Source: Spirochaetia bacterium (GTDB lineage Bacteria > Spirochaetota > Spirochaetia > SZUA-6 > Bin103). From it: a DNA stretch of 64,000 bases. Below are positions 26,654-60,733 of this stretch, piece by piece. Where the stretch lies: contig CBDAOI010000003.1 of NCBI GenBank assembly GCA_965198005.1, forward strand, positions 1,024,001-1,088,000, read 5' to 3'. The notes below the pieces were generated by a model. It was given only the letters and a program-made list of their open reading frames with translations. It was not told the DNA's origin and ran no database searches. The position numbers were made by a program, and so were the translations under genes. Numbering within the stretch: position 1 is the stretch's first letter; each line of letters starts with the position of its first letter.

Positions 26654-28906
26654 TTATGCCTCCACACGCCTCTCGGGTATCGTGGACGCCGGAAGGGCCT
26701 CTGTTTCGTCGAATCGCTTGCGAACGTCAGCAGCAACCTCGAGCATTTCGGCAGGCGCGCGCACCGTCTCGCCGTCACGCTGACGCAGGGCAATGGCTAG
26801 CGGTGCTACACTCGCGGTCTTCTGCGGATCGCTCCGTAGGACCTCGACGATCTCGCGCTCCGGAACGCCGGCGCTGACCAGCACGGCCACAGCCTCAATC
26901 AGCTCGGGTATCATCGTTTCGTTCTCAGGAGTAAAAGCGGCATACAACGAGCAAAACGCGTCAACGGCTGCCGTGCGCCTCCCTTGTGACAATATCGCAC
27001 ACATCCGGACGTACCGCGCTTTCCAGTCGAAAGATATACGGATGTCCTGGTCGACGGCCTGGCGCCGGCTCTCGAGTTGGTTTGCTGTCAGCAGAGCTTC
27101 GGCGGCGCGGTCAATCCTGACCTGCGTCATGCCCTTGTGAAACAGAGCCGTGGCAATTTGCACCCGCAACTCCGGCGTATCGCTTGATCCGAAACGATCG
27201 ACGATAGCATTACTGGTCTCGATCGACGTACTTGCGTCCCCCATCAATGCGTGAGAGGTACTCTTGTTGTTCATGGCCCGAGCCACCAATACGCGCGGCT
27301 CCGGATCGGCGCTGTGCCCGTAGTGCCTCATCACCGCTTCAGCGGCTGCAATCGCCTCAGGATGGCGGCCAAGCTTGCCCAACGAGGCGCTCTTCTGTAG
27401 TAGTGCACCTGCGACATGCACTTGAATGGCCGCCTCCTTGCAGGCACCAAAGCGCTCCACCACCTCTTCGGATGTCCTGATTGCAGCTTCGGGATTGCCG
27501 AGTCGATCTTGCATCGCGGCCTTATATGCTAACGATTGCGCGGCCCACGCCTGTAGCTCAGCCTCGTCACTCTCCCGGTAGCGCTGTTCGACGTTCTCGA
27601 AGGTCGTAATCGCCGCCGCAAACCAGCCAAGCTCCGCTTGCTCGACTCCCTTGTTGATCAATGTCCGAGCAACTCTGCTCTGGAAATCAAGTGCCTCCAG
27701 TTCCAGCGTGCCGAATAACTTGAGGATTTCCCTTTCGGTATAGAAGACCGCCATGAAGCGCACCAGATTCTGTACAACGGCCGCTTGGTCACGTTCTCGG
27801 CGCAATTGGTAGTAAATGCAGTATAGGGGTTCCGTCACTCTGTACAGCCGCTTCCTGCCACTCCCGTCCCAGATCACCGCGCCACGCTCGACGAGGCGCC
27901 CGAGCATGGTCGACACGGTACGTACGTCCATCCGCGCGCGCCCGGCGATCTCCCCCGTGCTCGACGACTGCCAGAGGTCAGCGATGGCCAGAAAAACGCG
28001 GCATTCGGTTTTGGGGAGAGCTTCCTGGTAGCCACGGAAGGTATCCGTGAGATCGTCGATCAGTTGCACCAACTCTTCCATCAACTGGCGCAGGGTACGA
28101 TGGCGCGCGAATCCGGCGACAATGACCACGAAACGGGGCGAGCCTCCGGTCAGAATTTCAAGCGCCCTCTGCTGGCGTTCGCTCGGCGCCTCACCGCTGA
28201 AGACCTTCCACAGGAGACCGCACTGCGCGGCATCCAACGGTGCGAGAGAGATGATTCTGAACAGTTCGAAAAACGGTTGCCGGGCGTCGTCCAGCCCCTC
28301 GAAGCGGCTGGTCGCGGTGGCGACCAGGATGATCTGCGGCTCCGTCTGCAGCGTCTTGCGCAGCTTCCAACCGAAATCCTCGTCCACGTTCGCGCACATC
28401 GCTTGCAGGTTTTCCACCATGAGGACGAGGCGTCTTCCAAGAGTGTCGGCCGCCTCCAGGACTGCGACTCTGGCACGTTCGTCGAGCTCTCGCTCGCGCC
28501 AACGGGTAGTGAGGTCGGCCCGCGTCTCCCGCAGGTTACGCGCGAGTTCTGAGTCCTGCTCGTCGACTGCCAGGGCCAGATAAAAAAGAACCTCCAGCCA
28601 GAAATCCGCGGCGCTGAACACCTCGTCGCTCTCCTCCATGAAGCGGACCGGCAGCAGGCGCGATGCAAGCTCTGAGTCGGCGCGCAGTTCGGCGGCGACG
28701 CGGGCCAGGAGCATGGTCTTCCCCCTGCCCCTGGGGGCGACGATCAGTGTGTGCTGGCAGGAGTCGGCATCGATGTTCTCGCGGAGAATCTCGAGCCCGG
28801 TGGCGAGTTCATGCTCTCTAACGACGAACTGCTCCCTTATCTCTTCGTCAGACTGGAGCATTCCGGGATTGCGCTTGCGAATGGTCGGCCCCTGCGATGC
28901 GCTCAT
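26654..28906 (-). CDS. STAND-like P-loop ATPase with winged HTH and TPR repeats
   Basis: APRGRGKT Walker A, LMVENL, LTGGSPR, STGEIAGRARMDVRTVSTMLGRL, repeated A.AL.NK...LG...AI units. Confidence 0.8.
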   Translation of the reverse strand: MSASQGPTIRKRNPGMLQSDEEIREQFVVREHELATGLEILRENIDADSCQHTLIVAPRGRGKTMLLARVAAELRADSELASRLLPVRFMEESDEVFSAADFWLEVLFYLALAVDEQDSELARNLRETRADLTTRWRERELDERARVAVLEAADTLGRRLVLMVENLQAMCANVDEDFGWKLRKTLQTEPQIILVATATSRFEGLDDARQPFFELFRIISLAPLDAAQCGLLWKVFSGEAPSERQQRALEILTGGSPRFVVIVAGFARHRTLRQLMEELVQLIDDLTDTFRGYQEALPKTECRVFLAIADLWQSSSTGEIAGRARMDVRTVSTMLGRLVERGAVIWDGSGRKRLYRVTEPLYCIYYQLRRERDQAAVVQNLVRFMAVFYTEREILKLFGTLELEALDFQSRVARTLINKGVEQAELGWFAAAITTFENVEQRYRESDEAELQAWAAQSLAYKAAMQDRLGNPEAAIRTSEEVVERFGACKEAAIQVHVAGALLQKSASLGKLGRHPEAIAAAEAVMRHYGHSADPEPRVLVARAMNNKSTSHALMGDASTSIETSNAIVDRFGSSDTPELRVQIATALFHKGMTQVRIDRAAEALLTANQLESRRQAVDQDIRISFDWKARYVRMCAILSQGRRTAAVDAFCSLYAAFTPENETMIPELIEAVAVLVSAGVPEREIVEVLRSDPQKTASVAPLAIALRQRDGETVRAPAEMLEVAADVRKRFDETEALPASTIPERRVEA

Positions 28907-30152
28907 AGAACCGGCCCCCCCGCGGCACCCCGCGAGCGGTTGGCAATAGGAACGTGGTGATTGCGGAAGCGCGCCGCCCACCAGTCCTTCAGCAGGTGCA
29001 ACCGGAAGCGATAGGTACCGTCGCGTACTTCGAGATAGCCGTCGTGTTCCAGTACGTCCAGGACCTCGGTAATGCGGCCGTGTGCGTCGGACATCACACG
29101 CGAGTAGAGCGCGCCGAGACGGGTGCGGGTGCCAGGCGTGAACGCTCCTTGCGTGGCGGCCTCCGCAAGTATCTCCATGGCGATGGAGCGGCTTCCCTCG
29201 TCGAGTCCGTCTCGGAGCCGGGTCTCGTAGTGGGCGAGGTCGTTCTGGCCGGAGGGGCCGAGCAGCCCGGTGCGGTAGACCCTGTCGACGTCGGCCACGG
29301 TCACGCGGTCGCGGTTCTCCATCACGGAAGAATCGCGCAACCTTGCGAAGAACGACTGTACGTGATGCGGGATACCGATTCCGAGCGCATCGTATACCGC
29401 CGCGGCGACGCCATCCTCTACCGACAGTGAGGCGCTGTTCGCGAGCTGGTCGAAACAAGCCACACTCGCTTCGCGATTCCACGGGCCCAGACGAAAGGGC
29501 TCAAGGTAGTTGATACGATCAGGGATTCCGAGCCGCTGCACCAGCGGCATGAGTCCGATGCTGCCGGACACGATGAGGGTCGGGGAGTCACCGCCAAGAC
29601 GCTGAAACACGCCGCGCAGCCAGCTCAGGAACGCCTCGACCCGGGTAGCGCCATCCTCCGCGCGCAGCATCCGCTTGAGAAAGATCGGGAGTTCGTCGAT
29701 CACCAGAAGAACCCGCCTGTCGTGTTCCGCGCAGCTTTGGAGCAGCCGCTCGCCGTGGTCTCGCCAGTTTCCGGGGTCCAATCCAGCACGGATCTTCAAG
29801 CGAAAGCCGCTCACGCCGATCTCCTCGACGACTCCGAATGCGCGTGCGCTACACTCGCGATACCGCCGAGTCGCGACACGACTGGACGAACCGGGTAGGC
29901 AGCCCGCGCGATGTCGGCGATCACGTCCTCAGGGCAGGTCGCGTCCTCGACATCGGTGAAGAGCGTGACCCATCCGCCGGACCGCGTGAGCCGTCGGCCG
30001 AGTTCCCGCGTGATGCTGGTCTTGCCCATGCGCCGCTGGCCGGTCAGCAGCACGTGGTTGCCGTCGCGTACCCGTCTTTCCAGAATGCGAAGCTCAGGTG
30101 TGCGGTCGAAGAAGTCGTCGCCGCTGACCCAGCCGCCGGTCGCCGATCTCAT
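28903..30152 (-). pseudogene. AAA/STAND-like ATPase, frameshift near 29850
   Basis: FFDR..EL, GQRRMGKTS in one frame; LLVIDELP, VSGSIGL, IPHHVQ, LLKDWW in another. Confidence 0.8.
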
Positions 30153-34918: not shown

Positions 34919-35914
34919 GTGGACGTTATCAGTCAACGCCGCACGGCGCCGCCGCGGCGCACCGGCGACGCCGGCATCGGTCAGCCGGCTGTCAGGCCGC
35001 TCAGCCTGGGGCGGCCGGAGCACCTGTCGCCCGAACAGATCGCCGGACTGTCGGCGGTGCACGAGGGCTTCGCCCGGCGCGCCGGCGAGGCGCTGTCGGC
35101 GTACCTGCGCAGCCCGGTCCGACTCCACCTGAAGACCGTTCAGCAGCTCTCGTACGAGGAGTGCGCCCGGGCCCTGCCGGATCCCGGCGCCCTGGCCGTG
35201 GTGGAGTTGGAGCCGTTCGCCGGCACGGCGCTGCTGGCGGTCGATCAACCGTTCGCGTTTGCGGCGATAGACCGGCTGCTTGGCGGCCGGGGCGACTCTG
35301 CGGCGCCCGCGCGCGGCCTGAGCGACATCGAGCGCGCGGTAATGGAGAACATCGTGCACCGGCTGATGGCGCCTCTGGCCGCGGCGTGGCAGCCGGTACG
35401 GGCGCTCCGGCCGCGGTTGAGCCGCATCGAAACCGCCCCGGAACAGGCCCGGATCGCCGCGCCGCGGGAGGCCGTGGTGCGGCTGACGTTCGACCTCCGC
35501 CTGCGCGCGGCCGGGACCATGCATTTCCTGATTCCTCTTTCGGCCCTGGCCCCGGTCAGGAGCAGGCTCGGACCACGGTCGTGCGGGCACGCCGAGCGCC
35601 GGGAGGAGCGCGGCGCCGAAGCCGGCGGCCGCGGCGGCGGCCGCGCGCGCTCGCAACGGGCGACGCTCGGTGAGTTGCTGCGGGCGGCGCCGTTGCCGGT
35701 GACCGTGGAGCTCGGGGGCGCCTGCGTACCGTTGCGCGCCATCCTCGAGCTGACGGCGGGCGACGTGCTGCCGCTGGACCGGGTGCGGCCGGGCGACGAG
35801 CTGGCGGTTAAGGTAGGCGGCAGAACGAAGTTCATGGGGCGGCCGGGCGTGGTAGGCGGCCGGCTCGCCGTCCAGATCCGGGCACCGGCGCGGGTCGGGG
35901 GCGGGCCGGAATGA
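34919..35914 (+). CDS. fliM: Flagellar switch protein FliM (divergent)
   Basis: RPEHLSPEQI, HEGFAR, QLSYEE, IDRLLGGRG, IETAP, C-terminal SpoA domain. Confidence 0.9.
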   Translation: MDVISQRRTAPPRRTGDAGIGQPAVRPLSLGRPEHLSPEQIAGLSAVHEGFARRAGEALSAYLRSPVRLHLKTVQQLSYEECARALPDPGALAVVELEPFAGTALLAVDQPFAFAAIDRLLGGRGDSAAPARGLSDIERAVMENIVHRLMAPLAAAWQPVRALRPRLSRIETAPEQARIAAPREAVVRLTFDLRLRAAGTMHFLIPLSALAPVRSRLGPRSCGHAERREERGAEAGGRGGGRARSQRATLGELLRAAPLPVTVELGGACVPLRAILELTAGDVLPLDRVRPGDELAVKVGGRTKFMGRPGVVGGRLAVQIRAPARVGGGPE

Positions 35915-36273
35915 GTGCCGCCGACGTGCAGCCCATGCAGCTTGCCAGCCTGCAGCCGGAGGCCGAAACCGGCCACCACCGGACGCCGGCCGACATCGGG
36001 TTCCTGAAGGACGTGGACCTGCGGATCACGGTGGAGCTCGGCGGCACCACGCGGACGATCGGGGAGATTCTGGGCCTCGGCACCGGGTCGGTGATCGAGC
36101 TCGACAAGCTGGCGGGCGAGCCGGTCGAGATCCTGGTCAACCGCACGCCGATCGCCCGCGGCGAGGTGGTGGTGATCGACGACGCGTATGGCGTGCGGGT
36201 CACGGAGATCATGGCCGGCGTGCGGATGGGCGACGATGGAGCGGGCAACGGCTCCCGCGTCGAGGCGGGCTAG
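35911..36273 (+). CDS. fliN: Flagellar switch protein FliN
   Basis: TVELG...IELDKLAGEPVEILVN...GEVVVID..YGVRVTEI. Confidence 0.93.
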   Translation: MSAADVQPMQLASLQPEAETGHHRTPADIGFLKDVDLRITVELGGTTRTIGEILGLGTGSVIELDKLAGEPVEILVNRTPIARGEVVVIDDAYGVRVTEIMAGVRMGDDGAGNGSRVEAG

Positions 36274-36286
36274 CGGCCTGCGCACC

Positions 36287-37003
36287 GTGGGTCGCCGCAG
36301 GCCGGCACGCGCACCCGCGGCACTGGTACTGCTGCTCATCGGGAGCGCGGTGCTTGGGCTGATCGGTCCGCTCGCCGCCCAGGAGCCGCAGCCGTCCACG
36401 CCGGAGCCGGCGGCGGGCGCCGCCGATCCCGCGCGCGACCTGACCCCGCTGCCCGGAACCGGGGAGTCGGCCGCGCTGGCGGTTGCACGCGCTCCCGCCG
36501 GCGGCGCGGCCCCGTCCACCTGGGACTTCGTGCGCATGGTGCTGGTGCTGGCCGCGGTGCTGGCCGCCATCTATCTGGTTTTCCTGTTGGTCAAGCGCAG
36601 CACGTCGGGACGGGTGCGGGAGAACGACCTGATCACCCTGGTCGGCTCGCGCACGCTCGGCGGCGGGCGCCACCTGCACTTGGTGCGGGTGGGTACGTCC
36701 TACTACCTGGTGGGGGCGGCGGACGAGTCGGTCAACCTGATTGCCGAGATTACCGACGGTGAGAGCCTCGACACGCTGAAGCTCGAGCTGTCCACGGCAA
36801 CGGTCGCGGGGCGGCGCAGTTTTGCGGACGTGCTCGGCGAGGCGTTCGGCGGCATCGGCGCGGGCGGCAGCCGGGGCCACGGTCACGGCGTCCTGCTTTC
36901 CGGCGGCGAGGCCGCCGCCGGAAGCGTGCTCGGCCAGCGGCGCCGCGGGGTCCAGAACGTGCACCGTCGACCCGGGCGGGGAGGGGCCGATGCCGGCAGT
37001 TGA
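36287..37003 (+). CDS. fliO: Flagellar biosynthesis protein FliO (start uncertain)
   Basis: DFVRMVLVLAAV TM segment, LHLVRVG..YYLVG, synteny. Confidence 0.8.
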   Translation: MGRRRPARAPAALVLLLIGSAVLGLIGPLAAQEPQPSTPEPAAGAADPARDLTPLPGTGESAALAVARAPAGGAAPSTWDFVRMVLVLAAVLAAIYLVFLLVKRSTSGRVRENDLITLVGSRTLGGGRHLHLVRVGTSYYLVGAADESVNLIAEITDGESLDTLKLELSTATVAGRRSFADVLGEAFGGIGAGGSRGHGHGVLLSGGEAAAGSVLGQRRRGVQNVHRRPGRGGADAGS

Positions 37004-37793
37004 CCGCCGCTGGTGCGCCGGCGGCCTGCTCGCGCTGCTGGTGCTGGGCCAGCTCCTGGCACCGGCCCCGGCGGCCGCCCAGGAGCTGGTGGACGCGCTC
37101 GCCGACGGTGTGGGGTTTCCGTTCGTCGATCTGTCGGTGCGCGACGCCCAGTCGAACCGGGAAGTGCTGCTGTCGCTGCAGTTCCTGCTGCTGCTGGCGG
37201 TGGTGTCGCTGGCGCCTTCCCTGATCGTCCTGATGACCTCGTTCGTGCGGCTGGCGATCGTATTCGACTTGGTCAAGCGGGCCTTGTCGCTGCAGCACGT
37301 GCCGCCGCACCAGGTGCTGATGGGCATCGCCCTGTTTCTCACCCTGTTCATCATGTGGCCCACGCTCGACACGGTGAACCGCACCGCGCTGCAGCCGTTC
37401 GCGCGCGGCGAACTGAACACCGAACAGCTCCTGCAGCGGGCCGAGACGCCGGTGCGGGAGTTCATGTTTCGCCAGCTCGGGGACGACGCCGACAACATCC
37501 GTCTGTTCATGCGCATGCGCGACCTGCCGAAGCCGGCCACGCGCGCCGACGTGCCCACCTACATCCTGATCCCCGCCTTCATCCTGCACGAGCTGACGGT
37601 GGCCTTCAAGATCGGGATTCTGATCTTCGTGCCGTTCGTGATCATCGACCTGGTGGTGGCCACGGCACTGATTTCGATGGGCATCATCGTGCTCCCGCCG
37701 ATGCTGATCTCGCTGCCGTTCAAGCTGATCCTGTTCGTGCTGGTGGACGGCTGGGACCTGATCACGATGCAGGTGATCGCGAGCTTTCGCTGA
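36990..37793 (+). CDS. fliP: Export gate protein FliP
   Basis: SLAPS...MTSFVR, PPHQVL, LIPAFILHEL, PFVIIDLVV, LPFKLILFVLVDGW. Confidence 0.95.
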   Translation: MPAVDRRWCAGGLLALLVLGQLLAPAPAAAQELVDALADGVGFPFVDLSVRDAQSNREVLLSLQFLLLLAVVSLAPSLIVLMTSFVRLAIVFDLVKRALSLQHVPPHQVLMGIALFLTLFIMWPTLDTVNRTALQPFARGELNTEQLLQRAETPVREFMFRQLGDDADNIRLFMRMRDLPKPATRADVPTYILIPAFILHELTVAFKIGILIFVPFVIIDLVVATALISMGIIVLPPMLISLPFKLILFVLVDGWDLITMQVIASFR

Positions 37794-38074
37794 TGGACGG
37801 GGCCATGACAATGGGCGCGGCGGTGACTCTGGCGCGCGACGGCGTGCTGCAGTTGCTGATGATCGCGGGACCGATCCTCGGGGTGAGCGTGATCGTCGGC
37901 CTGGTGATCTCGATTCTCCAGGCGACCACCTCGATTCAGGAGCAGACGCTCACCTTCGTCCCCAAGATCCTCGCCCTGCTCGGCGTGGTATTCCTGCTCG
38001 CGCCCTGGCTCGGCGGTTCGATGGTGGAGTTTACTCGCCGCCTGTACGCGGCGATTCCGGGGATGGCGCTGTGA
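37793..38074 (+). CDS. fliQ: Export gate protein FliQ
   Basis: VGLVISILQATTSIQEQTLTFVPK. Confidence 0.95.
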   Translation: MDGAMTMGAAVTLARDGVLQLLMIAGPILGVSVIVGLVISILQATTSIQEQTLTFVPKILALLGVVFLLAPWLGGSMVEFTRRLYAAIPGMAL

Positions 38075-38916
38075 CCGCGGGCGGACTGCTGGACGGGCTG
38101 GTGACGCTCGACGACTGGTACGTGGGCCTGCTGGTATTTGCCCGGGTGCTCGCCATGATCCAGGTGGCGCCGCTGTTCTCGTCGTCCGCCGTCCCCCAGA
38201 TCGCCAAGTTCGGTCTGGCGCTGTTCCTTACGGTGATTCTGCTGCCGTGGGTGCTGGAGCGCGGCTATCCGGTGCCCGCGTCCGGCGTGCAGTATGCACT
38301 GCTGCTGCTCGGTGAGGCGCTGGTGGGCCTGCTGATCGGGTTTCTGATCTACCTGGCGGTCGCGGCGTTTCAGGTGGCGGGGCAGTTCCTTTCGCTGCAG
38401 CTCGGGTTCGACTCGGCCGAGGTGTTCGACCCGTTCAGCCGCAGCTCGCTGCCGTCGCTCGGCCAGTTGTTCCACCTGCTCGCGCTGCTGGTGTTCCTGA
38501 GCGTCGGCGGGGTGCACCGGTTCATGCTGACCGGCCTGCTCGGTTCGTTCCAGGCGCTGCGTGCCGGCGATCTGGCCGCGCCGGCGCTGCTGGGCACGCT
38601 GTCGCGCGGTCTGGGCACCCTGTTCGCGACCGCGTTCGCCATCGCGTTTCCGGTGTTCGGCGCGCTGGCGCTGGTGTCGGTCGCCCTGGCGCTGTTGGCC
38701 AAGGCGGCGCCGCAGATGAACCTGCTCATTCTGGGCGTGCCGATCGCGACGGCCGCCGGGCTGGTGATCCTGGTGCTGGCGCTGCCGGTGCTGCTGGAGG
38801 CGGTGGCGGCGGTCATCGACGGAGCGTTCGTGGAGTTGCGCCAACTGCTCGCGCGGCTGGCCGCCGAGCCCCGGCCGGCGCTGGATTCGGCCGCGGTCAG
38901 GGGAGGAGCGCTGTGA
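38071..38916 (+). CDS. fliR: Export gate protein FliR
   Basis: FARV...APLFS, AGQFLSLQLGF, KAAPQMNL. Confidence 0.92.
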   Translation: MTAGGLLDGLVTLDDWYVGLLVFARVLAMIQVAPLFSSSAVPQIAKFGLALFLTVILLPWVLERGYPVPASGVQYALLLLGEALVGLLIGFLIYLAVAAFQVAGQFLSLQLGFDSAEVFDPFSRSSLPSLGQLFHLLALLVFLSVGGVHRFMLTGLLGSFQALRAGDLAAPALLGTLSRGLGTLFATAFAIAFPVFGALALVSVALALLAKAAPQMNLLILGVPIATAAGLVILVLALPVLLEAVAAVIDGAFVELRQLLARLAAEPRPALDSAAVRGGAL

Positions 38917-39992
38917 GCGGCTGGTCCGGCGCGGAACACGAGGGGCGTACCGAGGCCCCCAGCGCCGCCCGACTGCGGGCTGCCCGCAGCGCGGGAGTGG
39001 TGCCGCGCACCACCGAGCTGCCGGCGGCGATGACGCTGGTGGGCGCGGTCGCGGCCCTGGCGGTGCTGGGACGTTCGGCGGTGGCCACGGTGAGGGAGAT
39101 GCTGCGCGTGTTCTTGATGCAGGCTGCCACGCCCGAGGTGGCGGCCACGCCGGCGAGCGCCGAGCTGGCATTCTCCTACCTGCTCCGTCTGGTGCTGCCC
39201 GTGGCCGGGATCGGCTTGGTGGCCGCGCTGGCCGGGAATCTGGTGCAGGTCCGGCCGCGGCTCGCGGTCAGACCGGTTGCGCCCGATTGGCACCGGATCG
39301 TTCCCCGGTTCCTCAGTTACTTCAGGCGTGCGCTGTTTTCCGCCGAGGCGGCCTACCGGCTGGCCGCCACCGCGCTCAAGGTGCTGGTCATCGCGGCGCT
39401 CGCGGGCGCGACCATTCACGCCGTGCTCGAGCGGCTGGCCGGTAGCGTGCGGATGCCGCTCGAAGCCGCCGGCGCACTGTTAGCGGCGGCGGCGCTGCGC
39501 ATGGCCGGCAGCGTGGCGCTGCTGCTGCTGGCCCTGGCGATTGCCGACTATCTGGTGCAGCGCCGGCGCCACCGCCGGGCACTGCGGATGACCCCGCGCG
39601 AGGTGCGCGAGGAGCGCCGCCGGCAGGAGCCCGATCCCCAGGTGCGCCGCCGGCTGCGCGCCCGCATGCGCGAGTTGCTGTCGCGCGACCTGGCGCGGCA
39701 GGTGGCGGGTGCGGCGGCGGTCATCACCGGCGGCGCGCGCTGGGCGGTGGCGGTGCGCTGGACCGGGCACGCCCTGGCGGCGCCGGTGGTGGTGGCCAAG
39801 GGGCTGGACGAGGCCGCCGGCAGGATCCGCGCGGCCGCCGCCGCCCACCCGGTGCCGCTGGTGGAGCGCCCGCAGTTGGCGCGGGTGCTGGCCGAGTACG
39901 TCGAGGTCGGCGACCCGGTCCCCGCCGCGTACTTCCGGCCGCTGGCGGAGGCACTGGCGCGGACCGCACCGGGGGAGGTGCCGGATGGCTGA
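38913..39992 (+). CDS. flhB: FlhB, lacking the NPTH autocleavage motif
   Basis: RTEAPS...L..AR..G, LRMT..EV.EE...EPDP, VITGGARWAVA, APVVVAKG, LAR.L. Confidence 0.9.
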   Translation: MSGWSGAEHEGRTEAPSAARLRAARSAGVVPRTTELPAAMTLVGAVAALAVLGRSAVATVREMLRVFLMQAATPEVAATPASAELAFSYLLRLVLPVAGIGLVAALAGNLVQVRPRLAVRPVAPDWHRIVPRFLSYFRRALFSAEAAYRLAATALKVLVIAALAGATIHAVLERLAGSVRMPLEAAGALLAAAALRMAGSVALLLLALAIADYLVQRRRHRRALRMTPREVREERRRQEPDPQVRRRLRARMRELLSRDLARQVAGAAAVITGGARWAVAVRWTGHALAAPVVVAKGLDEAAGRIRAAAAAHPVPLVERPQLARVLAEYVEVGDPVPAAYFRPLAEALARTAPGEVPDG

Positions 39993-41997
39993 CGCAAAGA
40001 CCGCCGGCCCGTACGCCTTCAGCGGCTGGCAGCGGCGCAGCGACGTGCTGGTGGCCCTGTTCGTGATCGTGTTCATCCTGATGATGTTGATTCCGCTGCC
40101 GGCAGTGGTGCTCGACCTGTTCATGGCGCTCAACATCTGTCTCGGCCTGCTGGTCATTCTGATCGTGCTCTACACCCGGAGTCCGTTGGAGTTCACCATC
40201 TTTCCGACGCTGCTGCTGCTGGCCACGGTGTTCGGGCTGGCTCTCAACGTCTCGTCGACGCGGCTGATTCTGGCACAGGGCGCGGCCTTCGAGGGTCGCA
40301 TCGTGCGCGCGTTCGGAAGCTTCGTCGTGGGCGCTCCGGGTACCGCCGGCTACGTCATCGGCGCGATCATCTTCACCATGATCATGGCCGTGCAGTTCGT
40401 GGTCATCACCAAGGGCGCCACGCGGGTAGCCGAGGTGGCGGCCCGCTTCACCCTGGACGCCCTTCCCGGCAAGCAGATGGCGATCGACGCGGAGTACAAC
40501 TCCGGCCTGCTGTCGGAAGCGGAAGCGACGCGGCGCAAGAACGAGCTGCGGCGCGAGACCGACTTCTACGGCGCCATGGACGGCGCCTCGAAGTTCGTGT
40601 CCGGGAACGTGCGCGTCGGGGTTCTGATCACGCTGATCAACCTGGTCGGCGGGCTGATCGTGGGCGTCGCGGTGCGCTCCGAGCCCCTGGCCGCGGCGGC
40701 GGGAACCTACGTGTCGCTGACCATCGGCGACGGCCTGGTAACGCAGCTCCCGGCGCTGCTGATTTCCACCGCCACCGGGATCATCGTGACGCGCGCCGTC
40801 TCCGATGCCTCGTTCGGCCGCGACCTGGCGCGCCAGCTTGCGCTGCACCATCGGCCGTTCTACATCGCCGCGGGTTTCCTCGCGGTGCTTGCCCTGCTGC
40901 CCGGCTTTCCCGTGCACGTGTTGCTGCCGCTGGCCGCGGTGCTCGGCTGGTGCGGCCATGCCATCGGCCGCCGGCAGGCGGGCGCCGCCGGCGCCGAACC
41001 ACCAGCCGCCACCGAGCCGGGCCCTGCCGCGCGGGCGGCGTCGCCGCCAGCCGCCGCCGCGCCGGTGGCCCCCGTGTCACCGGTGGCGCCGCCCGATCCG
41101 CTGGCGGTCGAGTTGGGGTATGGACTGGTGCCGCTGGCCGAGGAGGAGGGCGGTACCGACCTGTTGCAGCGGCTGGCCGCCGTGCGCCGCGCCGCGGCGC
41201 AGGAACGCGGCCTGGTGGTGCCGCCGGTTCGGATTGCCGACAACCTGAACCTGCGGCCCACCGAGTATGCCGTCAAGATCCGCGGCGTCGAGGTGGAGCG
41301 CGACCGCCTGCGCGGCGGCGCGCAGGAGCTGGCTGCCCGCCTGACACGGATCATCGAGCGGCGCGCGGCCGACCTGCTCGGTCGAGAAGACGTGAAGTCG
41401 ATGCTCGAGGCGCTCCGGGGGGACTATCCGACCGTGGTCGAAGAAGCCACGGCGACGCTGTCGGTCGGCGAGATTCAGCGCGTGCTGCAGGCGCTGTTGG
41501 CAGAGGGGGTGTCGATACGCGATCTGGTGGCTATTCTCGAGGCGCTCGGCGACTACGCGCCCGAACGGCGGGACACCGGGTTTCTGGTGGAACGGGTGCG
41601 CCGGACACTGGCGCGGCAGATTTCGCAGCAGCACGCGGGCACGGACGGGGTACTGCACGTCCTGACGCTGGCGCCGGACCTGGAACGGCGGGTGATCGAA
41701 GCCGCCGCGGAGGGCGCCGACGAAGGTCCGAACGGCGGTGCGGCGGCCGGCGGCCGCTCGGCGGAGTGGCGGCGGCACTGGGTCGGCGCCCTGGCGGAGG
41801 CGGTCGCGGAGGCCGAGCGGCGGGGGCACCCGCCGGTGGTGTTGTGCCCCGCGCCGGCACGGGCGTGGGTGCGGGCCGCCACCCGGCGCGAGCTCCCGCA
41901 CCTGGTGTGCCTGGCGGACACCGAGCTGGCCGAGGTCGCCGTGACAGCGCTGGCGGAAGTGCAGCCGGAGCGGCCGGCGGGAGAGGGCGGGCGGTGA
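39985..41997 (+). CDS. flhA: FlhA, lacking cytoplasmic subdomain D2
   Basis: FPTLLL, RVAEVAARFTLDALPGKQMAIDA, FYGAMDGASKFV, TIGDGLV, ELGYGL, VLQALL.EGVSIRDL. Confidence 0.95.
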   Translation: MADAKTAGPYAFSGWQRRSDVLVALFVIVFILMMLIPLPAVVLDLFMALNICLGLLVILIVLYTRSPLEFTIFPTLLLLATVFGLALNVSSTRLILAQGAAFEGRIVRAFGSFVVGAPGTAGYVIGAIIFTMIMAVQFVVITKGATRVAEVAARFTLDALPGKQMAIDAEYNSGLLSEAEATRRKNELRRETDFYGAMDGASKFVSGNVRVGVLITLINLVGGLIVGVAVRSEPLAAAAGTYVSLTIGDGLVTQLPALLISTATGIIVTRAVSDASFGRDLARQLALHHRPFYIAAGFLAVLALLPGFPVHVLLPLAAVLGWCGHAIGRRQAGAAGAEPPAATEPGPAARAASPPAAAAPVAPVSPVAPPDPLAVELGYGLVPLAEEEGGTDLLQRLAAVRRAAAQERGLVVPPVRIADNLNLRPTEYAVKIRGVEVERDRLRGGAQELAARLTRIIERRAADLLGREDVKSMLEALRGDYPTVVEEATATLSVGEIQRVLQALLAEGVSIRDLVAILEALGDYAPERRDTGFLVERVRRTLARQISQQHAGTDGVLHVLTLAPDLERRVIEAAAEGADEGPNGGAAAGGRSAEWRRHWVGALAEAVAEAERRGHPPVVLCPAPARAWVRAATRRELPHLVCLADTELAEVAVTALAEVQPERPAGEGGR

Positions 41998-43295
41998 CCA
42001 CCGCGTACTTCAAGGTGCAGGGCACGACCCCGCGTGAGGCGCTCGCCAACATGAAGCGGCTGTATGGACCGGACGCCCGCATACACTCTCACCGCGTGGT
42101 CAAGATCGGAGGACTGTTCGGCCTGTTCAAGCGCGACGGAGTAGAGATTACCGGGTTCGTGGATCCGCCGGCGGCGTACGCCGCGGCGACCGCGTCGGAA
42201 CCGGCCCCGGCCGACGCGGAGCCGGCCGCGGCCCAGCAGCGGTTGGCGTACGAGCAGCGCCGGATCCTGGAGCAGACGCCCTCCGGGGCCGGTCTGCGGC
42301 GGCTGGTAGACGAGGTGGCGGCACTGCGCGCCCGGCTCGACCGCTCGTTGCCGGAGACCGCCGAGGTGACCGTACGGCTCGGTGAGCATCCGTGTCTGCT
42401 CGCATTGGACGCACTGCTGGTGCGCAACGACTTCGCCCCCGGCTACCGCGCGCGGCTGCTCGATCGGGTACGGTCGGAGTTCACCCTGCAGCAGCTTGAG
42501 GACCGGGCCGCCGTGCACCGCTACGTGGCCCTGCAGATCGGCCGTGCGCTGTCGGTGGCGCAACCCTTGACCGGGACCGACGACACCGCCGCCGGCGGGC
42601 CGCTGGTGTGCATCGTGGTCGGTCCGACCGGCGTCGGCAAGACCACCACAATCGCCAAGCTGGCGGCGATCCACGGCCTCGGCAACGGCGCCGGCGAACG
42701 CCGGAACGTGCACATCGTGACGATCGACAACTATCGCATCGGCGCCCGCCAGCAGATCGAGACCTACGGCGAGATCATGCGCATTCCGGTCACCACGGCC
42801 GAAACCGCGGAGGATCTCAAGAAGGCGGTGGCGCTCGGGCGCGACCTGGACCTCATCTTCGTCGACACGGTCGGCCGCAGTCCGGCCGACTACGCCCGCC
42901 TAGGCGAAATGCGCGCCGTGCTGGAGGCAGCCGGCCGGCGCAGCACGACCCAGCTTGCCGTGAGCGCCACCACCAAGCATCCGGACCTCGAGCAGATCCT
43001 GCGCCAGTTCGAGCCGTTCGGATACGACACCGTGATCGTCACCAAGCTCGACGAGACCGCCGCCATCGGCAACGTGCTGTCCGTGCTGGCGGAGCGCCGC
43101 AAGCCGGTCTCCTACCTGTGCGACGGGCAGGTGGTGCCGCAGGACATCGCACGGGCATCGATCGGACGGTTGCTGGTCAGCCTGGAGGGGTTCGAGCTCG
43201 AGCGTGCGGCGCTGGAGCGTGAGTTCGGGACCTTCGGGGAGGCGCCGGCGCCGTCCGCCGGGAAAGAGCGGATGCCGATCTTGACCTCGCCGTGA
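41994..43295 (+). CDS. flhF: SRP-family GTPase FlhF
   Basis: GPTGVGKTTTIAKLA, DNYRIGA, DTVGRS, TKLDET, GQVVPQDI. Confidence 0.93.
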   Translation: MTTAYFKVQGTTPREALANMKRLYGPDARIHSHRVVKIGGLFGLFKRDGVEITGFVDPPAAYAAATASEPAPADAEPAAAQQRLAYEQRRILEQTPSGAGLRRLVDEVAALRARLDRSLPETAEVTVRLGEHPCLLALDALLVRNDFAPGYRARLLDRVRSEFTLQQLEDRAAVHRYVALQIGRALSVAQPLTGTDDTAAGGPLVCIVVGPTGVGKTTTIAKLAAIHGLGNGAGERRNVHIVTIDNYRIGARQQIETYGEIMRIPVTTAETAEDLKKAVALGRDLDLIFVDTVGRSPADYARLGEMRAVLEAAGRRSTTQLAVSATTKHPDLEQILRQFEPFGYDTVIVTKLDETAAIGNVLSVLAERRKPVSYLCDGQVVPQDIARASIGRLLVSLEGFELERAALEREFGTFGEAPAPSAGKERMPILTSP

Positions 43296-43343
43296 TTTAT
43301 ACCTACGCTCTCGGAAATTGGGTTGTGTCCGTGGGGCGATGCT

Positions 43344-44168
43344 ATGGCGCGTGACAGCCGGGAGCTAGGCGTGGCAGATCCGGTCCCGGAGGCCGCTGAC
43401 GCCGTTCCGGAAGAAGAGCTGTGGAGGCGCTACCGGCAGCGCCGGGATCCCAAGATACGCGACCACTTCATCCGCCAGTACGCGCCGTTGGTCAAGTACG
43501 TGGCCGGCAAGATGGCGGTGGGCATGCCCGGCAACGTGGAGTTCGACGACTTGGTGGGCTACGGCGTGTTCGGGCTGTTCGACGCCATCAAGAAGTTCGA
43601 TCCGACCAAGCACGTCAAGTTCAAGACCTACGCCGTGACGCGGATTCGCGGAGCGATCTTCGACGAGTTGCGCACCATCGACTGGGTGCCGCGCTCGGTG
43701 CGCCAGAAGGCGCGCGAGGTCGAGGAAGCCGTGCGCACCCTGGAAGCGAAGCTCGGACGCGCCGCCACCGACGCCGAGATCGCCAAGAAGATGAACATGC
43801 CCCCGGACGAGTTCCAGCAGCTCATGCTCAAGATCAGCGGCACCTCGATCCTGTCGCTCAGCGACGTGTGGTACAGCGGTGACGACAATGACCGCATCTC
43901 GGTGGCGGAGAGTATCGAGTCTCCGACCAGCCTCAATCCCGATTCGATCGTGGAGAAGGATGAGATCAAGCGGGTGATCGTCGAGGCAATCGGCGAACTG
44001 TCGGAGAAGGAGCAGAAGGTGCTGGTGCTCTACTATTACGAGGATCTCACGCTGAAGGAGATCGGTGAAGTGCTGGAAGTCACCGAGTCGAGAGTCTCCC
44101 AACTCCACACCAAGGCGATCATCCGACTGCGCGCCAAGCTGACCAATCTGAAACGTGGTGTCGCCTGA
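43344..44168 (+). CDS. fliA: RNA polymerase sigma-28 factor (FliA/WhiG)
   Basis: [56 protein letters not shown]. Confidence 0.95.
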
Positions 44169-44255: not shown

Positions 44256-45581
44256 GTGATGCATTATTCCCGGTACCGCACCCTGGAACGGCAGCAGGTA
44301 GTGCCCCGCAACGGGCACAGCCGATTCGCGCGCGCAGCGCCCCGTGCGCTCCGTAACCAGCAGCCGAGCACGCGCCGCCCGTCCGCCCGCCGGACCCCGA
44401 CTGCGTCCCGCTCCCCGGTCGCACTGCTCGGCGCGACGGCGCGGTCCATGGCCCGCGGCCGGAGCAGCGTGCGCGAGCTGGTGCGCAAGGTCCACGCCGC
44501 CGCGGCCGCACTGTTGTCCCGCATGGTAATCCGGCCGATGCATGCCACCGCCACGGTGCTGCTGGTGGTGGCTGCCCTGACCGCAACCACTCTGGCCCAG
44601 ATCGCCCCCAGCGAGCCCAGCCCACGGCTGTCGCCGCAGGTGTTGACGGACGGACTGGCGACCCCGGCGACGGTGCACTTGGCCGCGGCAGTCCCGGGCA
44701 CGGGCGCAGCGCCGGGTTCGGTCGTGGCATCGTCGGCCGGCGCAGCGACCGGAATCGCTACCGTGGCGACCGCCGGCGCCGCGTTGCCTGCCGAGCCGGC
44801 GAACGCGGCGAACCCGGCGAACCCGGCGGTGTCGACCGCCGCCCAGGGCCTCCCGCCAATCCAGCGGGTTCACCCGCACCAGGTGGTGAGCGGCGATACG
44901 CTGTCGGGGCTGGCGGCGCGGTTCGGGATTACGCTCGATACGATCATCAGTTTCAATGACATCAAGCGTGCCCGCGACCTGCGCGTGGGACGCGAGCTGA
45001 CCATCCCCGCCGCATCGGGAGTGCGCTACGAGGTGCGCCGGGGTGACAGTCTGAGCGGCATCGCGGTGCGCCACGGCGTGGATCTCAGCACCGTGCTCGC
45101 GGCCAATGCGGTGCAGGGCGAGTTGATCACGCCGGGGCAGGTCCTGATGATCCCCGGCGGCCGCCTGGGTGAGAACGAGCTCAACCGCGTGCTCGGACGG
45201 CTGTTCGTGTGGCCGGCCCGCGGGCGACTGACCTCCGGCTACGGTTACCGCAACGATCCGTTCACCGGAATCCGCAAGTTTCACAACGGCATCGACATCG
45301 CCAACGCCCAGGACACCGCGGTGGTAACGGCGATGGGTGGCAGCGTGGCGATGCTGGGTTACAACGGAAACTACGGGCGCTACCTGATCATCCGCCATCA
45401 GGATGGCTTCCAGACTCTGTACGCGCATCTGCACAAGATAGTCGTGGAACGCGGCCAACGGGTGCGTCAGGGACAGCGCGTCGGTTCGATGGGGACCACG
45501 GGATACAGCACCGCCAGTCATCTGCATTTTTCCATCTTCCAGCATGGCCGCCACGTCAATCCGGTGAAGCATCTCGACTGA
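44256..45581 (+). CDS. LysM + M23 peptidase
   Basis: Two LysM repeats (GDTLS/GDSLS), HNGID, HLH. Confidence 0.9.
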   Translation: MMHYSRYRTLERQQVVPRNGHSRFARAAPRALRNQQPSTRRPSARRTPTASRSPVALLGATARSMARGRSSVRELVRKVHAAAAALLSRMVIRPMHATATVLLVVAALTATTLAQIAPSEPSPRLSPQVLTDGLATPATVHLAAAVPGTGAAPGSVVASSAGAATGIATVATAGAALPAEPANAANPANPAVSTAAQGLPPIQRVHPHQVVSGDTLSGLAARFGITLDTIISFNDIKRARDLRVGRELTIPAASGVRYEVRRGDSLSGIAVRHGVDLSTVLAANAVQGELITPGQVLMIPGGRLGENELNRVLGRLFVWPARGRLTSGYGYRNDPFTGIRKFHNGIDIANAQDTAVVTAMGGSVAMLGYNGNYGRYLIIRHQDGFQTLYAHLHKIVVERGQRVRQGQRVGSMGTTGYSTASHLHFSIFQHGRHVNPVKHLD

Positions 45582-45610: not shown

Positions 45611-45638
45611 CCCATTCTGCACAATTGTGCAGAATGGG
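45611..45638. repeat. Perfect 28-bp palindrome
   Basis: cccattctgcacaattgtgcagaatggg. Confidence 0.9.
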
Positions 45639-45650
45639 TGGCGGATCGGA

Positions 45651-46655
45651 ATGAGGACTGACGCAAGGCAGCGCCGGCGCGGCCGCGGGAGGCGGTGGCT
45701 GGCGATTCTGGCCGCCGGTTGCGTGGCCGCACTGGTCGTTCAGGCTACCGTGATCGGGCCCACGCGCACGGCGCCGTACGATGAAGGGGAGTACCTGTTG
45801 TTCCCGGGCGATTGGCTGGCCACGACCCGGAACGCCTACCCGCAGGTCGGGGCCGGGGGATTTGCCGCGAGCGCGCACGGGGTCGGCGGCAGCGCCGAGG
45901 GAATCGACCCGCCACCGTTGTCGCTCGCCAGCAAGTACTACCGGGTGCGGCGCGGCGACACCTTTACCGGCATCGCTGCCCGGTTCGGGTTGACCCTGGA
46001 CACGATCGCCTCGTTTAACCGGGACGCCGGGGTCGGGGTGCATCAGCTCGCCATCGGCGAGTTGGTCAAGATTCCGAACCAGGATGGGATCTACCTGCCG
46101 GTAGGCGACGATCTGGCGCAACTCAGCCTGGAACAGGGAGTGTTGCCGGAGACGGTGCTGGTAGCCAACGGCGTCGATCTCGACGAGTTGACGCCGGCCA
46201 CGGAATTGTTCTTTCCCGGCGTCCAGCACTCCGGGCACGAGCTGGCCATGGTGACCGGGGCCGCATTCACGCGTCCGACCGCCGGCTGGGTGAGTTCCCG
46301 GTTCGGTCCGCGGATCGACCCGTTCACCGGCACCCGGAGTTTCCACCACGGGGTCGACCTTGCGGCGCCGCATGGGACCGCGGTGCGCGCCACCCAGGAT
46401 GGCAAGGTAGCCGCCACCGGCCACAGCCGGGTGTTGGGCAAGTACATCATCATCACCCACTACGTGGCCGGGTACTCCTCACTGTACGGCCACCTGCATC
46501 GGGTCTACGTGCGCCGCTCCGAACGGGTGCGCGGCGGTGAGCCGATCGGCACCGTCGGCGCTACCGGGCAGGTGACCGGTCCCCACCTGCACTTCGAACT
46601 ACGGCGCGGCAAGATCCGGCTCGACCCCGCGCAGTTCATCTCCGGTCTCCGCTGA
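45651..46655 (+). CDS. LysM + M23 peptidase
   Basis: YRVRRGDT, HHGVD, YGHL, GPHLHFE. Confidence 0.9.
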   Translation: MRTDARQRRRGRGRRWLAILAAGCVAALVVQATVIGPTRTAPYDEGEYLLFPGDWLATTRNAYPQVGAGGFAASAHGVGGSAEGIDPPPLSLASKYYRVRRGDTFTGIAARFGLTLDTIASFNRDAGVGVHQLAIGELVKIPNQDGIYLPVGDDLAQLSLEQGVLPETVLVANGVDLDELTPATELFFPGVQHSGHELAMVTGAAFTRPTAGWVSSRFGPRIDPFTGTRSFHHGVDLAAPHGTAVRATQDGKVAATGHSRVLGKYIIITHYVAGYSSLYGHLHRVYVRRSERVRGGEPIGTVGATGQVTGPHLHFELRRGKIRLDPAQFISGLR

Positions 46656-54967: not shown

Positions 54968-55215
54968 GGCTGTGATCTCCTTGCAGGCACGTTCGGGGTG
55001 CGCGGCGCGTCGCTCGGGGCGGGGCGACCGGCGCACCGACTCCACATCGTAGACCGGCGCGAACGGCTTGTCAACCGACCGGATCGAACTGGCCATGCCT
55101 GACGAAACCGCACACGACGGGGAGTCGCCTTCGATCATCCAACGGTTACCGAGTCCGCTACACCACGTCGTACATGCGCTGTCCTCCGTGCTGGCCCATC
55201 GGTCTGACGGCCGCC

Positions 55216-55249
55216 TTGCATCCTTCCTGATTTTGCATGACAATGTCAT
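55216..55249 (+). promoter_or_regulatory. TA promoter with palindromic operator
   Basis: TTGCAT-17-GACAAT; atgaca-a-tgtcat at 55237-55249. Confidence 0.6.
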
Positions 55250-60724: not shown

Positions 60725-60733
60725 GGGACCCGG

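Follow-up and report, generated by a model that had tools for sequence, protein, structure and literature searches.

A ten-gene flagellar operon of a Spirochaetia bacterium encodes an export core that is very probably maintained by selection for some function other than motility. The operon lies in a stretch of 64,000 nucleotides (nt), here called the window (C3:1024001-1088000), of a four-contig, 4.89-Mb genome (G000) with 66% guanine plus cytosine (GC), rated 90.4% complete. Its co-oriented genes, fliM-N-O-P-Q-R-flhB-flhA-flhF-fliA, occupy positions 34919-44168, from the GTG start of fliM to the stop of fliA in the gene model, and all are intact (Pfam, E 9e-12 to 3e-207). A job other than swimming is probable, because the core is under selection without axial parts and because a second, unrelated lineage has kept the same core.

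An earlier interpretation made from the letters of the window (the sequence-only reading) had described ten open and mostly coupled reading frames. Pfam names all ten, and seven of the nine gene junctions overlap, by 1-14 nt; the two gaps are 13 nt (fliN/fliO) and 48 nt (flhF/fliA). Since long frames arise by chance at ~70% GC, open frames alone are weak evidence, and the case for the operon is carried by homology and by the ratio of non-synonymous to synonymous substitution rates (dN/dS), not by frame openness. A search for related loci among genome contigs returned one distant locus only. The genes, all on the forward strand, are as follows.

34919..35914 (+): fliM, 331 amino acids (aa), protein of the cytoplasmic (C) ring without the docking peptide for phosphorylated CheY; Pfam FliM 1e-45, FliMN_C 5e-20
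35911..36273 (+): fliN, 120 aa, start overlapping the fliM stop by 4 nt; Pfam FliMN_C 3.6e-24
36287..37003 (+): fliO, ~238 aa, alternative start at 36236; Pfam FliO 9e-12
36990..37793 (+): fliP, 267 aa, pore subunit, Met loop (37683-37691) reading I-I-V; Pfam FliP 1.2e-69
37793..38074 (+): fliQ, 93 aa; Pfam Bac_export_3 3.3e-26
38071..38916 (+): fliR, 281 aa; Pfam Bac_export_1 1.4e-56
38913..39992 (+): flhB, 359 aa, NPTH site (39729-39740) reading GGAR; Pfam Bac_export_2 9.7e-78
39985..41997 (+): flhA, 670 aa, D2 junction at residues 443-449 (41311-41331); Pfam FHIPEP 2.6e-207, in two stretches
41994..43295 (+): flhF, 433 aa, GTPase of the signal recognition particle type, G motifs present; Pfam SRP54 1.4e-35
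43344..44168 (+): fliA, 274 aa, sigma-28; Pfam Sigma70 r2, r3 and r4

Inventory of the genome

Outside the operon, a solo fliF lies 85 kb upstream on the same contig and a solo fliG, with all three of its Pfam domains, on a different contig; FlgM (94 aa) is encoded elsewhere, also as a solitary gene. The sequence-only reading had taken absence of fliF, fliG, fliH and fliI as the mark of a decaying remnant. The first two are present as solo genes, and FliH, FliI and FliJ are absent, so only half of that picture holds. The genome has, in sum, the membrane/supramembrane (MS) ring and the C ring (FliF, FliG, FliM, FliN) and the full gate of FliP/Q/R, FlhB and FlhA together with FliO; the closest solved relatives of the gate proteins are flagellar chains.

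Domain searches of the genome gave no match to Flagellin_N (the control fired in four flagellated model genomes), Flg_bbr_C, Flg_bb_rod (E<=1) or FliE (E<=1), and did not find FliS, FliD_C or CheW. The FliI/YscN model TIGR01026 had matches below the cut-off only, in paired loci read as F-type and V-type ATPase subunits, and both matches to MotA_ExbB, sought as a MotA/MotB stator, are ExbB-ExbD pairs. These results were complemented by tblastn with 21 upstream open reading frames (ORFs; 17 flagellar and 4 neighbouring, ten Pfam-confirmed) from the operon of a flagellated relative of the same order. Among the flagellar proteins of this relative, only FliF (46%), FliG (62%), FliM (38%) and FliN (56%) matched. 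The genome gave no match for FlgB, FlgC, FliE, FliH, FliJ, FlgE, MotA, MotB or FliL, nor for two ORFs taken by position as FliK and FlgD, and FliI matched ATP synthases only. A genome without flagellin and without a canonical flhA/flhB set elsewhere, as the sequence-only reading supposed, is what the inventory found: no second flhA, flhB or fliPQR was detected. An apparent V-type ATPase operon, ~5 kb away from the solitary fliG, and what the pattern of matches alone suggests is an F-type ATP synthase were seen in passing (C4:1473-1482 kb and C4:1946-1950 kb).

The surviving genes represent the core of a spirochaete-type periplasmic flagellum, with FliF, FliG/M/N, FliO/P/Q/R, FlhB, FlhA, the placement GTPase FlhF and sigma-28 with FlgM. 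All axial parts (FliE, rod, hook, filament and cap) have been deleted in the lineage, as have the stators, chemotaxis and the ATPase FliH/I/J. Named FlhA homologues and the gene order of kin are among the grounds for the spirochaete assignment.

Altered parts of the retained proteins

Five lesions had been claimed from the sequence, in the NPTH motif of FlhB, subdomain D2 of FlhA, the methionine gasket of FliP, the CheY peptide of FliM and flhG, and all five are real. In FlhB, the sequence VITGGARWAV replaces the NPTH or NPEH of solved FlhB chains and the VITNPTH of canonical kin. The position is variable and degenerate in all nine same-genus copies, which include DAAR, HGER, HGGR, DPAR, AAAR and DGRR.

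The best solved chain for FlhA, 12dv_B (E 4e-171), runs from residue 436 to 488 while the query runs from 445 to 449, so that the protein of the window has nothing to match chain residues 437-487, a stretch of 51. We take these residues to be subdomain D2 of the FlhA cytoplasmic domain, part of the cleft in which chaperone-substrate complexes dock. The deletion is found by alignment with kin in 9/9 same-genus copies; FlhA of the window has an intact membrane domain. In an AlphaFold2 model, the predicted local distance difference test score of the C-domain is mostly 83-95, with one disordered loop near residues 579-590; a beta-hairpin leads directly to the following helix. A fold search with this model found only FlhA C-domains, at template modelling scores of ~0.5, and adds nothing to the sequence alignment. 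According to the titles of Protein Data Bank (PDB) entries 6ch2 and 6ch3, complexes of the FlhA C-domain with FliT-FliD and FliS-FliC exist. Residues R147, R154, D158 and K203 of FlhA, presumably with a role in proton coupling, are invariant in all 37 aligned sequences.

The FliM sequence LSQDEIDQLL, found in the three canonical kin aligned, is absent from the window and from all seven same-genus loci that have fliM. The flhG gene is gone: flhF stops 48 nt before fliA, at a place where canonical kin have FlhG and a gene of 202 aa, and the matches of canonical FlhG to the genome are only weak, ParA-like ones (identity 34% over 146 aa). FlhF itself was rightly described as intact in its GTPase motifs, which we take to be GPTGVGKTT, DTVGR and TKLDE, all read in the sequence.

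The loop of FliP that carries methionines in solved chains (GMIMLPP or GMMMLSP) reads GIIVLPP here. The same GIIVLPP occurs in all 12 family copies of FliP aligned (13/13 with the window genome) and in 8/8 same-genus loci that include fliP; GMIMLPP occurs in 3/3 canonical kin, whose loop is therefore M-I-M rather than MMM. In Salmonella, as given in the available text of the source, the function of FliP scaled with the number of Met residues in this loop, and the pore was sealed by a variant that tightens it; among ~2500 homologues, the outer two Met were 99% conserved (PMC8239009).

Relatives in the same order and family

Forty relatives were compared, with 23 in the family of the window genome (f1; 10 of the same genus and 13 of a sister genus) and 17 from seven other families of the order. 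All 17 genomes of the other families carry 3-5 Flagellin_N, five rod/hook C-domains, FliI and MotB, and in each of them FlhA matches as two pieces, which means that D2 is present. In f1, flagellin and rod/hook domains are missing from 22/23 genomes, and FliI and MotB from all 23. The operon occurs in nine of the ten same-genus relatives, as many as lack Flagellin_N, and the FlhA match has no internal stop in any of the nine operon genomes. The lesions described above recur in every same-genus copy examined and are absent from the flagellated kin. In the sister genus, three of 13 genomes keep fliF, fliOPQR, flhB without its C-domain, flhA with D2, fliA and a FliG without C-domain; FlhF, FliM and FliN are not kept by these three. 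The trajectory within the family is reductive.

The data rule out an ordinary flagellum. Its remaining genes could be imagined in unassembled DNA, the genome being 90.4% complete in four contigs and one same-genus bin having flagellin, but hardly any probability attaches to this idea. Four single-contig same-genus genomes (G001, G007, G009 and G010; 95-98% complete) lack flagellin, rod/hook domains, FliI and MotB, and fliF abuts fliM in 7/9 same-genus loci, whereas about ten genes stand there in the flagellated G030. These lesions, moreover, do not permit filament assembly in the way known from Salmonella.

Some further differences were seen among these genomes. Fusion of fliM with fliN was seen in four species of the genus (L024, L026, L027 and L038, from G001, G005, G007 and G006); it joins the FliM middle domain to the FliN C-domain, with deletion of the FliM C-domain and the FliN N-terminus. 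The FliG C-domain is kept in this stator-less genus (L004, L043-L051), and FliG of the window genome is 62% identical to that of flagellated kin. The torque-helix region of FliG has ED in canonical kin and ES or DA in this genus, and FliG of the sister genus is ~200 aa long. Flagellated kin (loci L033, L035, L039, L040) have a GC content of 41-43% (G030, G037) or 62% (G031), against 66-70% in f1; base composition changed greatly on the branch where the flagellum was lost.

A second lineage

The sampling was widened to the class, with 151 genomes at least 85% complete, of which 120 have flagellin and 125 have FlhA (E<=1e-100). FlhA without flagellin occurs in two groups only, the window genus (5/5, counting the window genome) and genus g31 of family f23 (5/5); five families (21 genomes) of this sample have neither. 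The g31 genomes measure 1.5-1.8 Mb and are 94-99% complete, and the three loci fetched have 46-49% GC. The other two sampled genomes of f23 are fully flagellated and canonical.

All three g31 loci contain fliO-P-Q-R-flhB-flhA-flhF-fliA, followed by a DUF6115 gene in two. The only one that reaches further upstream (G055) shows hslVU-fliF-fliG-fliH, followed by a stub of fliI and by fliM as a weak match. The three loci lack flgB, flgC, fliE, fliJ, fliK, flgD, flgE, motAB, fliL, flhG and FapA, and rod/hook domains are found in none of the five g31 genomes. One genome has GKDG at the NPTH site of FlhB, and in two others FlhB stops after the linker; D2 of FlhA and the Met loop of FliP are retained. 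FliP is 70-78% identical among g31 species at saturated dS, with 79% for the canonical f23 pair.

A maximum-likelihood tree of FlhA places g31 with the canonical members of f23 and the family of the window with flagellated kin of its own order, each with support 100/100; g31 branches are long and composition is heterogeneous, and the taxonomy agrees with the tree. By this evidence, retention of a near-identical core in g31 is independent of that in the window lineage.

Selection on the retained genes

The ratios dN/dS were obtained with the Nei-Gojobori method, a crude one, on columns trimmed to the gene models of the window and for species pairs with dS of 0.1-0.6. The values are 0.13-0.26 for fliP, 0.13-0.20 for fliQ and 0.22-0.26 for fliR. 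For flhA they are 0.20-0.25 over the whole gene, 0.10-0.15 in the membrane domain and 0.24-0.26 in the C-domain; flhF has 0.18-0.28 and fliA 0.03-0.13. The SecA control gives 0.14 and the M23 peptidases 0.16-0.48. In the sister-genus trio, fliP has 0.22-0.30, fliQ 0.11-0.16 and flhA 0.29-0.38. The true ratios would be lower still, because the strong GC bias at third codon positions tends to depress dS.

Ratios far below 1 for fliPQR and flhA, near that of SecA, uphold the view of the sequence-only reading that the losses are not random decay. The core is inherited vertically and is kept by purifying selection, and the data argue strongly against neutral decay.

What the core may do

Every part that serves late-substrate switching, chaperone docking or chemotactic control is deleted or drifting. 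The earlier claim that the losses are functionally coherent thus stands, since the parts shed all serve filament-stage export, the motor or chemotactic control. In FlhB and FlhA these are the NPTH switch and the D2 dock; the others are FliK, FlhG, the CheY dock, the late chaperones, the stators and the ATPase. Its more specific form, a basal-body-only secretion device locked in early-substrate mode, is retained in part: the apparatus is filament-less and its losses are coherent; no basal body extends beyond the inner rings, and secretion is only inferred. The rod- and hook-type early substrates of a locked switch do not exist here, because rod, hook, FliE and FliK are not found.

The chances are about even that the core is an ATPase-independent, single-mode export gate, driven by the proton-motive force (PMF) and held in an MS/C-ring scaffold. 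Such a gate would carry a few non-axial proteins out of the cytoplasm into the periplasm, the usual destination of spirochaete flagellar substrates, with FlgM as the only recognizable candidate cargo. Export is favoured because the five pore and gate proteins are under near-housekeeping constraint in three reduced groups, and because flagellar export without the ATPase is known, having been established according to the available text of the source (PMC4230889). A hint of expression comes from four RNA-sequencing runs labelled sponge metagenome, which belong to a single study; short contigs in them match parts of fliM, N, P, Q and R, flhA, fliA and the flanks at 99-100% identity, compatible with low-level transcription. 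A broader proposal, tentative and with the balance somewhat against it, is that FliF-FliG-FliO/P/Q/R-FlhB (membrane part)-FlhA forms a free-standing minimal gate without rod, needle, ATPase or switch, for periplasmic delivery or another use of the proton gradient, and that this state was reached twice by stripping a flagellum.

Several observations weigh against export by a maintained core. No cargo other than the candidate FlgM has been identified, and FlgM persists in nine of the ten gate-less genomes of the sister genus (E<=0.01). The cytoplasmic docking domains of FlhB and FlhA have been lost repeatedly. FlhA ends after the first helix of D1 in two same-genus genomes (G009 and G010), 9/23 clusters of D2-less FlhA in the protein database stop after D3, and the sister genus and 2/3 g31 genomes have lost the C-domain of FlhB, which shows docking parts in erosion. 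Constraint is relaxed in flhB (0.28-0.44), fliM (0.31-0.64), fliN (0.30-0.62) and fliO (0.36-0.45). Ten of the 13 sister-genus genomes have no match to flhA or fliF, so in some settings the gate can be done without. Flagellin and two rod-type (FlgC/FlgK-type) genes occur in one genome of the genus (G002; 81% complete, 510 contigs), on contigs (L054-L058) whose GC content of 64-66% matches the bin; FlhA, FliF, FliA, FliI and MotB have no match there. This genome may come from a flagellated member whose operon was not assembled, or the bin may be mixed. The RNA contigs, with depths of only 2-6, may be carried-over DNA; they leave many bins of the operon uncovered, gaps from which no conclusion is drawn. 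Finally, the Met loop of FliP has no methionine, in contrast with the Met dependence reported for Salmonella in the available text (PMC8239009). The docking-domain losses, the Met-free loop and the lack of cargo beyond FlgM keep a non-export role and a constrained relic in play.

A complex kept for a job other than export is rather unlikely. It could be a polar or membrane scaffold (FliF, FliG, FlhF), an FlhA-based unit that conducts ions or senses PMF, or a partner of sigma-28 and FlgM in the control of cell-wall hydrolases. The best-conserved parts are indeed embedded in the membrane (transmembrane domain of FlhA, 0.10-0.15; fliPQR, 0.13-0.26), the cytoplasmic domains that dock substrates are those lost repeatedly, two LysM-M23 peptidase genes follow fliA throughout the family, and FlhF is kept without its regulator FlhG. 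The rigid, hydrophobic I-I-V loop points the same way if compared with the tightening variant that sealed the Salmonella pore, as described in the available text (PMC8239009). A scaffold, however, does not need a five-protein pore, and yet FliP stays 70-78% identical at saturated dS. Nor does a single scaffold model fit the three reduced lineages, the sister genus being without FlhF, FliM and FliN, and no promoter of the sigma-28 type was found with the enterobacterial consensus.

Slow decay of a relic has a low probability. In this scenario, the genes ride in an operon with a needed fliA, and selection does no more than purge leaky or toxic variants of the pore. The reductions are graded up to the complete loss in 10/13 sister-genus genomes, fliA and FlgM persist where the gate is gone, frames can stay open by chance at high GC, branches of the FlhA tree are long (0.75-1.17 for g31, against 0.13-0.29 for canonical kin), and the I-I-V loop suits a pore that has only to be kept shut. 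Against this, two independent lineages have kept much the same genes at dS of ~1 or at saturation, and no stop is reported in the FlhA match of the window genus (g1; nine genomes), of the sister genus (three) or of the N-terminal piece of g31 (five). The losses are all in-frame removals of whole domains. The flhG gene, directly upstream of fliA, has been cleanly deleted, so linkage to fliA does not oblige adjacent genes to persist, and the FlhA C-domain is constrained (0.24-0.26) in the species that keep it.

Sigma-28, FlgM and neighbouring genes

The fliA gene is present in 40/41 relatives, with 76-81% identity to flagellated kin, and in 22/23 genomes of the family (70-81% identity), including ten without a match to flhA. 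Because it is kept in these ten gate-less genomes too, its conservation is uninformative on the gate. FlgM occurs in 19/23 family genomes (E<=0.01), and sigma-28 and FlgM have a role apart from the gate in f1. The pattern TAAA-N14-16-GCCGATA, an enterobacterial consensus, has 0 matches as a sigma-28 promoter, and looser scans gave only chance sites and two repeat families, so no regulon is named. These are multi-copy families of ~70 nt (~11 and ~6 copies) found at window position ~5557 (C3:1029557) and in at least ten other places of the genome; they are probably parts of mobile-element genes.

Upstream of the operon is a divergent gene for a thiamine-pyrophosphate enzyme. Downstream are two peptidase genes and then secA on the opposite strand.

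44256-45581 and 45627-46655 (+): two LysM-M23 peptidase genes; Pfam LysM, Peptidase_M23

The pair lies 3' of fliA in 8/9 same-genus loci (the contig of the ninth ends earlier) and in 3/3 sister-genus loci, and the order fliA, M23, M23, secA is kept in the eight same-genus loci that extend far enough downstream. M23a motifs (HxxxD and HxH) were read by eye. In Bacillus, sigma-D controls autolysins, and by analogy the LysM-M23 pair could be a cell-separation module under sigma-28 control.

In relatives, a DUF6115 gene (~150 aa, with an N-terminal membrane helix and a tail resembling a helix-turn-helix) follows fliA in 9/9 same-genus loci (L024:4271-4732 (-)), in 5/5 loci of flagellated kin (L033:15907-16371) and in 2/3 g31 loci; the Pfam DUF6115 match in a canonical relative has E 2.7e-09. 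The gene is lost from the window genome (best tblastn E 0.67). SwrB of B. subtilis is said to be encoded after the sigma-28 gene, and the DUF6115 gene is likened to it by position alone.

Farther away in the window, an NTPase of the STAND (signal transduction ATPases with numerous domains) type with tetratricopeptide repeats (948 aa, 26654-29500 (-)) lies in a stretch of lower GC. Two paralogues of the elongation factor G family lie ~3.4 kb apart (52931-55249 (-) and 58667-60733 (-)), the first with an N-terminal extension of ~100 residues in the stop-to-stop frame. The sequence-only reading described many frameshifts in nearby accessory DNA; hints of such damage are the partial matches to UxuA and to a short-chain dehydrogenase/reductase there (Pfam).

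Known systems and significance

The kept set comprises exactly the parts of the earliest flagellar assembly intermediate. In Salmonella, FliF, FliG, FliM, FliN, FliO/P/Q/R, FlhB and FlhA come together before FliE and the rod, in an intermediate that is transient and proceeds, helped by FliH/I/J, to the export of proteins for rod and hook. The same list of parts is here an end state rather than a transient one. Non-flagellar type III secretion systems likewise use a flagellum-derived gate beyond motility. FlhA of the window nests, however, within the flagellar FlhA of its own order (100/100), and its best PDB matches are flagellar. FlhB homologues of injectisomes (the YscU, EscU and Spa40 families) keep NPTH, unlike FlhB here.

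Buchnera aphidicola reportedly keeps the rod, the hook, the rings and the FliI ATPase. In the window genome, by comparison, rod, hook and FliI are not found, and FlhA, FlhB, FliP and FliM are remodelled at the level of domains or motifs. The likeness lies in a non-motile symbiont that has flagellar type III export and basal-body genes and no flagellin, with a transport role suspected in the available text (PMC8109811). Lysobacter enzymogenes OH11, also non-flagellated and without fliC, keeps flhA, flhB and fliPQR (PMC7688988). According to the available text, its system, which resembles the type III secretion system of the flagellum, was shown by experiment to be expressed, to export proteins and also to have an effect on a further trait. 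OH11 differs as a gammaproteobacterium that secretes to the outside and that keeps flgE, flgC, flgG, flgH, flgI, flgD and an active FliI; the available text makes no mention of NPTH (PMC7688988). Closer in taxonomy are Sphaerochaeta, non-motile spirochaetes that gave up periplasmic flagella; such total loss, as described in the available text (PMC3372971), is matched by five sampled families, whereas the window lineage and g31 stopped part-way. In a limited literature search, no earlier report was found of a core lacking both rod and ATPase, of domain losses of this kind in nature, or of convergent retention of such a core; papers on octocoral Spirochaetota and on actinobacterial flagella contained nothing of relevance.

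The two lineages amount to a natural experiment, run twice independently, on the smallest flagellar gene set that selection keeps once motility is gone. What could be shed is assembly control and not the core, namely the NPTH switch, D2 of FlhA, the CheY dock, FlhG and the ATPase. If export holds true, no simpler type III system would be known, and the core would be a tractable model for a gate that works without an axial cap or an ATPase. If the gate is a free-standing minimal one, it would be a present-day counterpart of the simple secretion core from which flagellum and injectisome are proposed to have arisen. As the organism occurs in sponge-derived RNA libraries, the module may also bear on the biology of symbionts.

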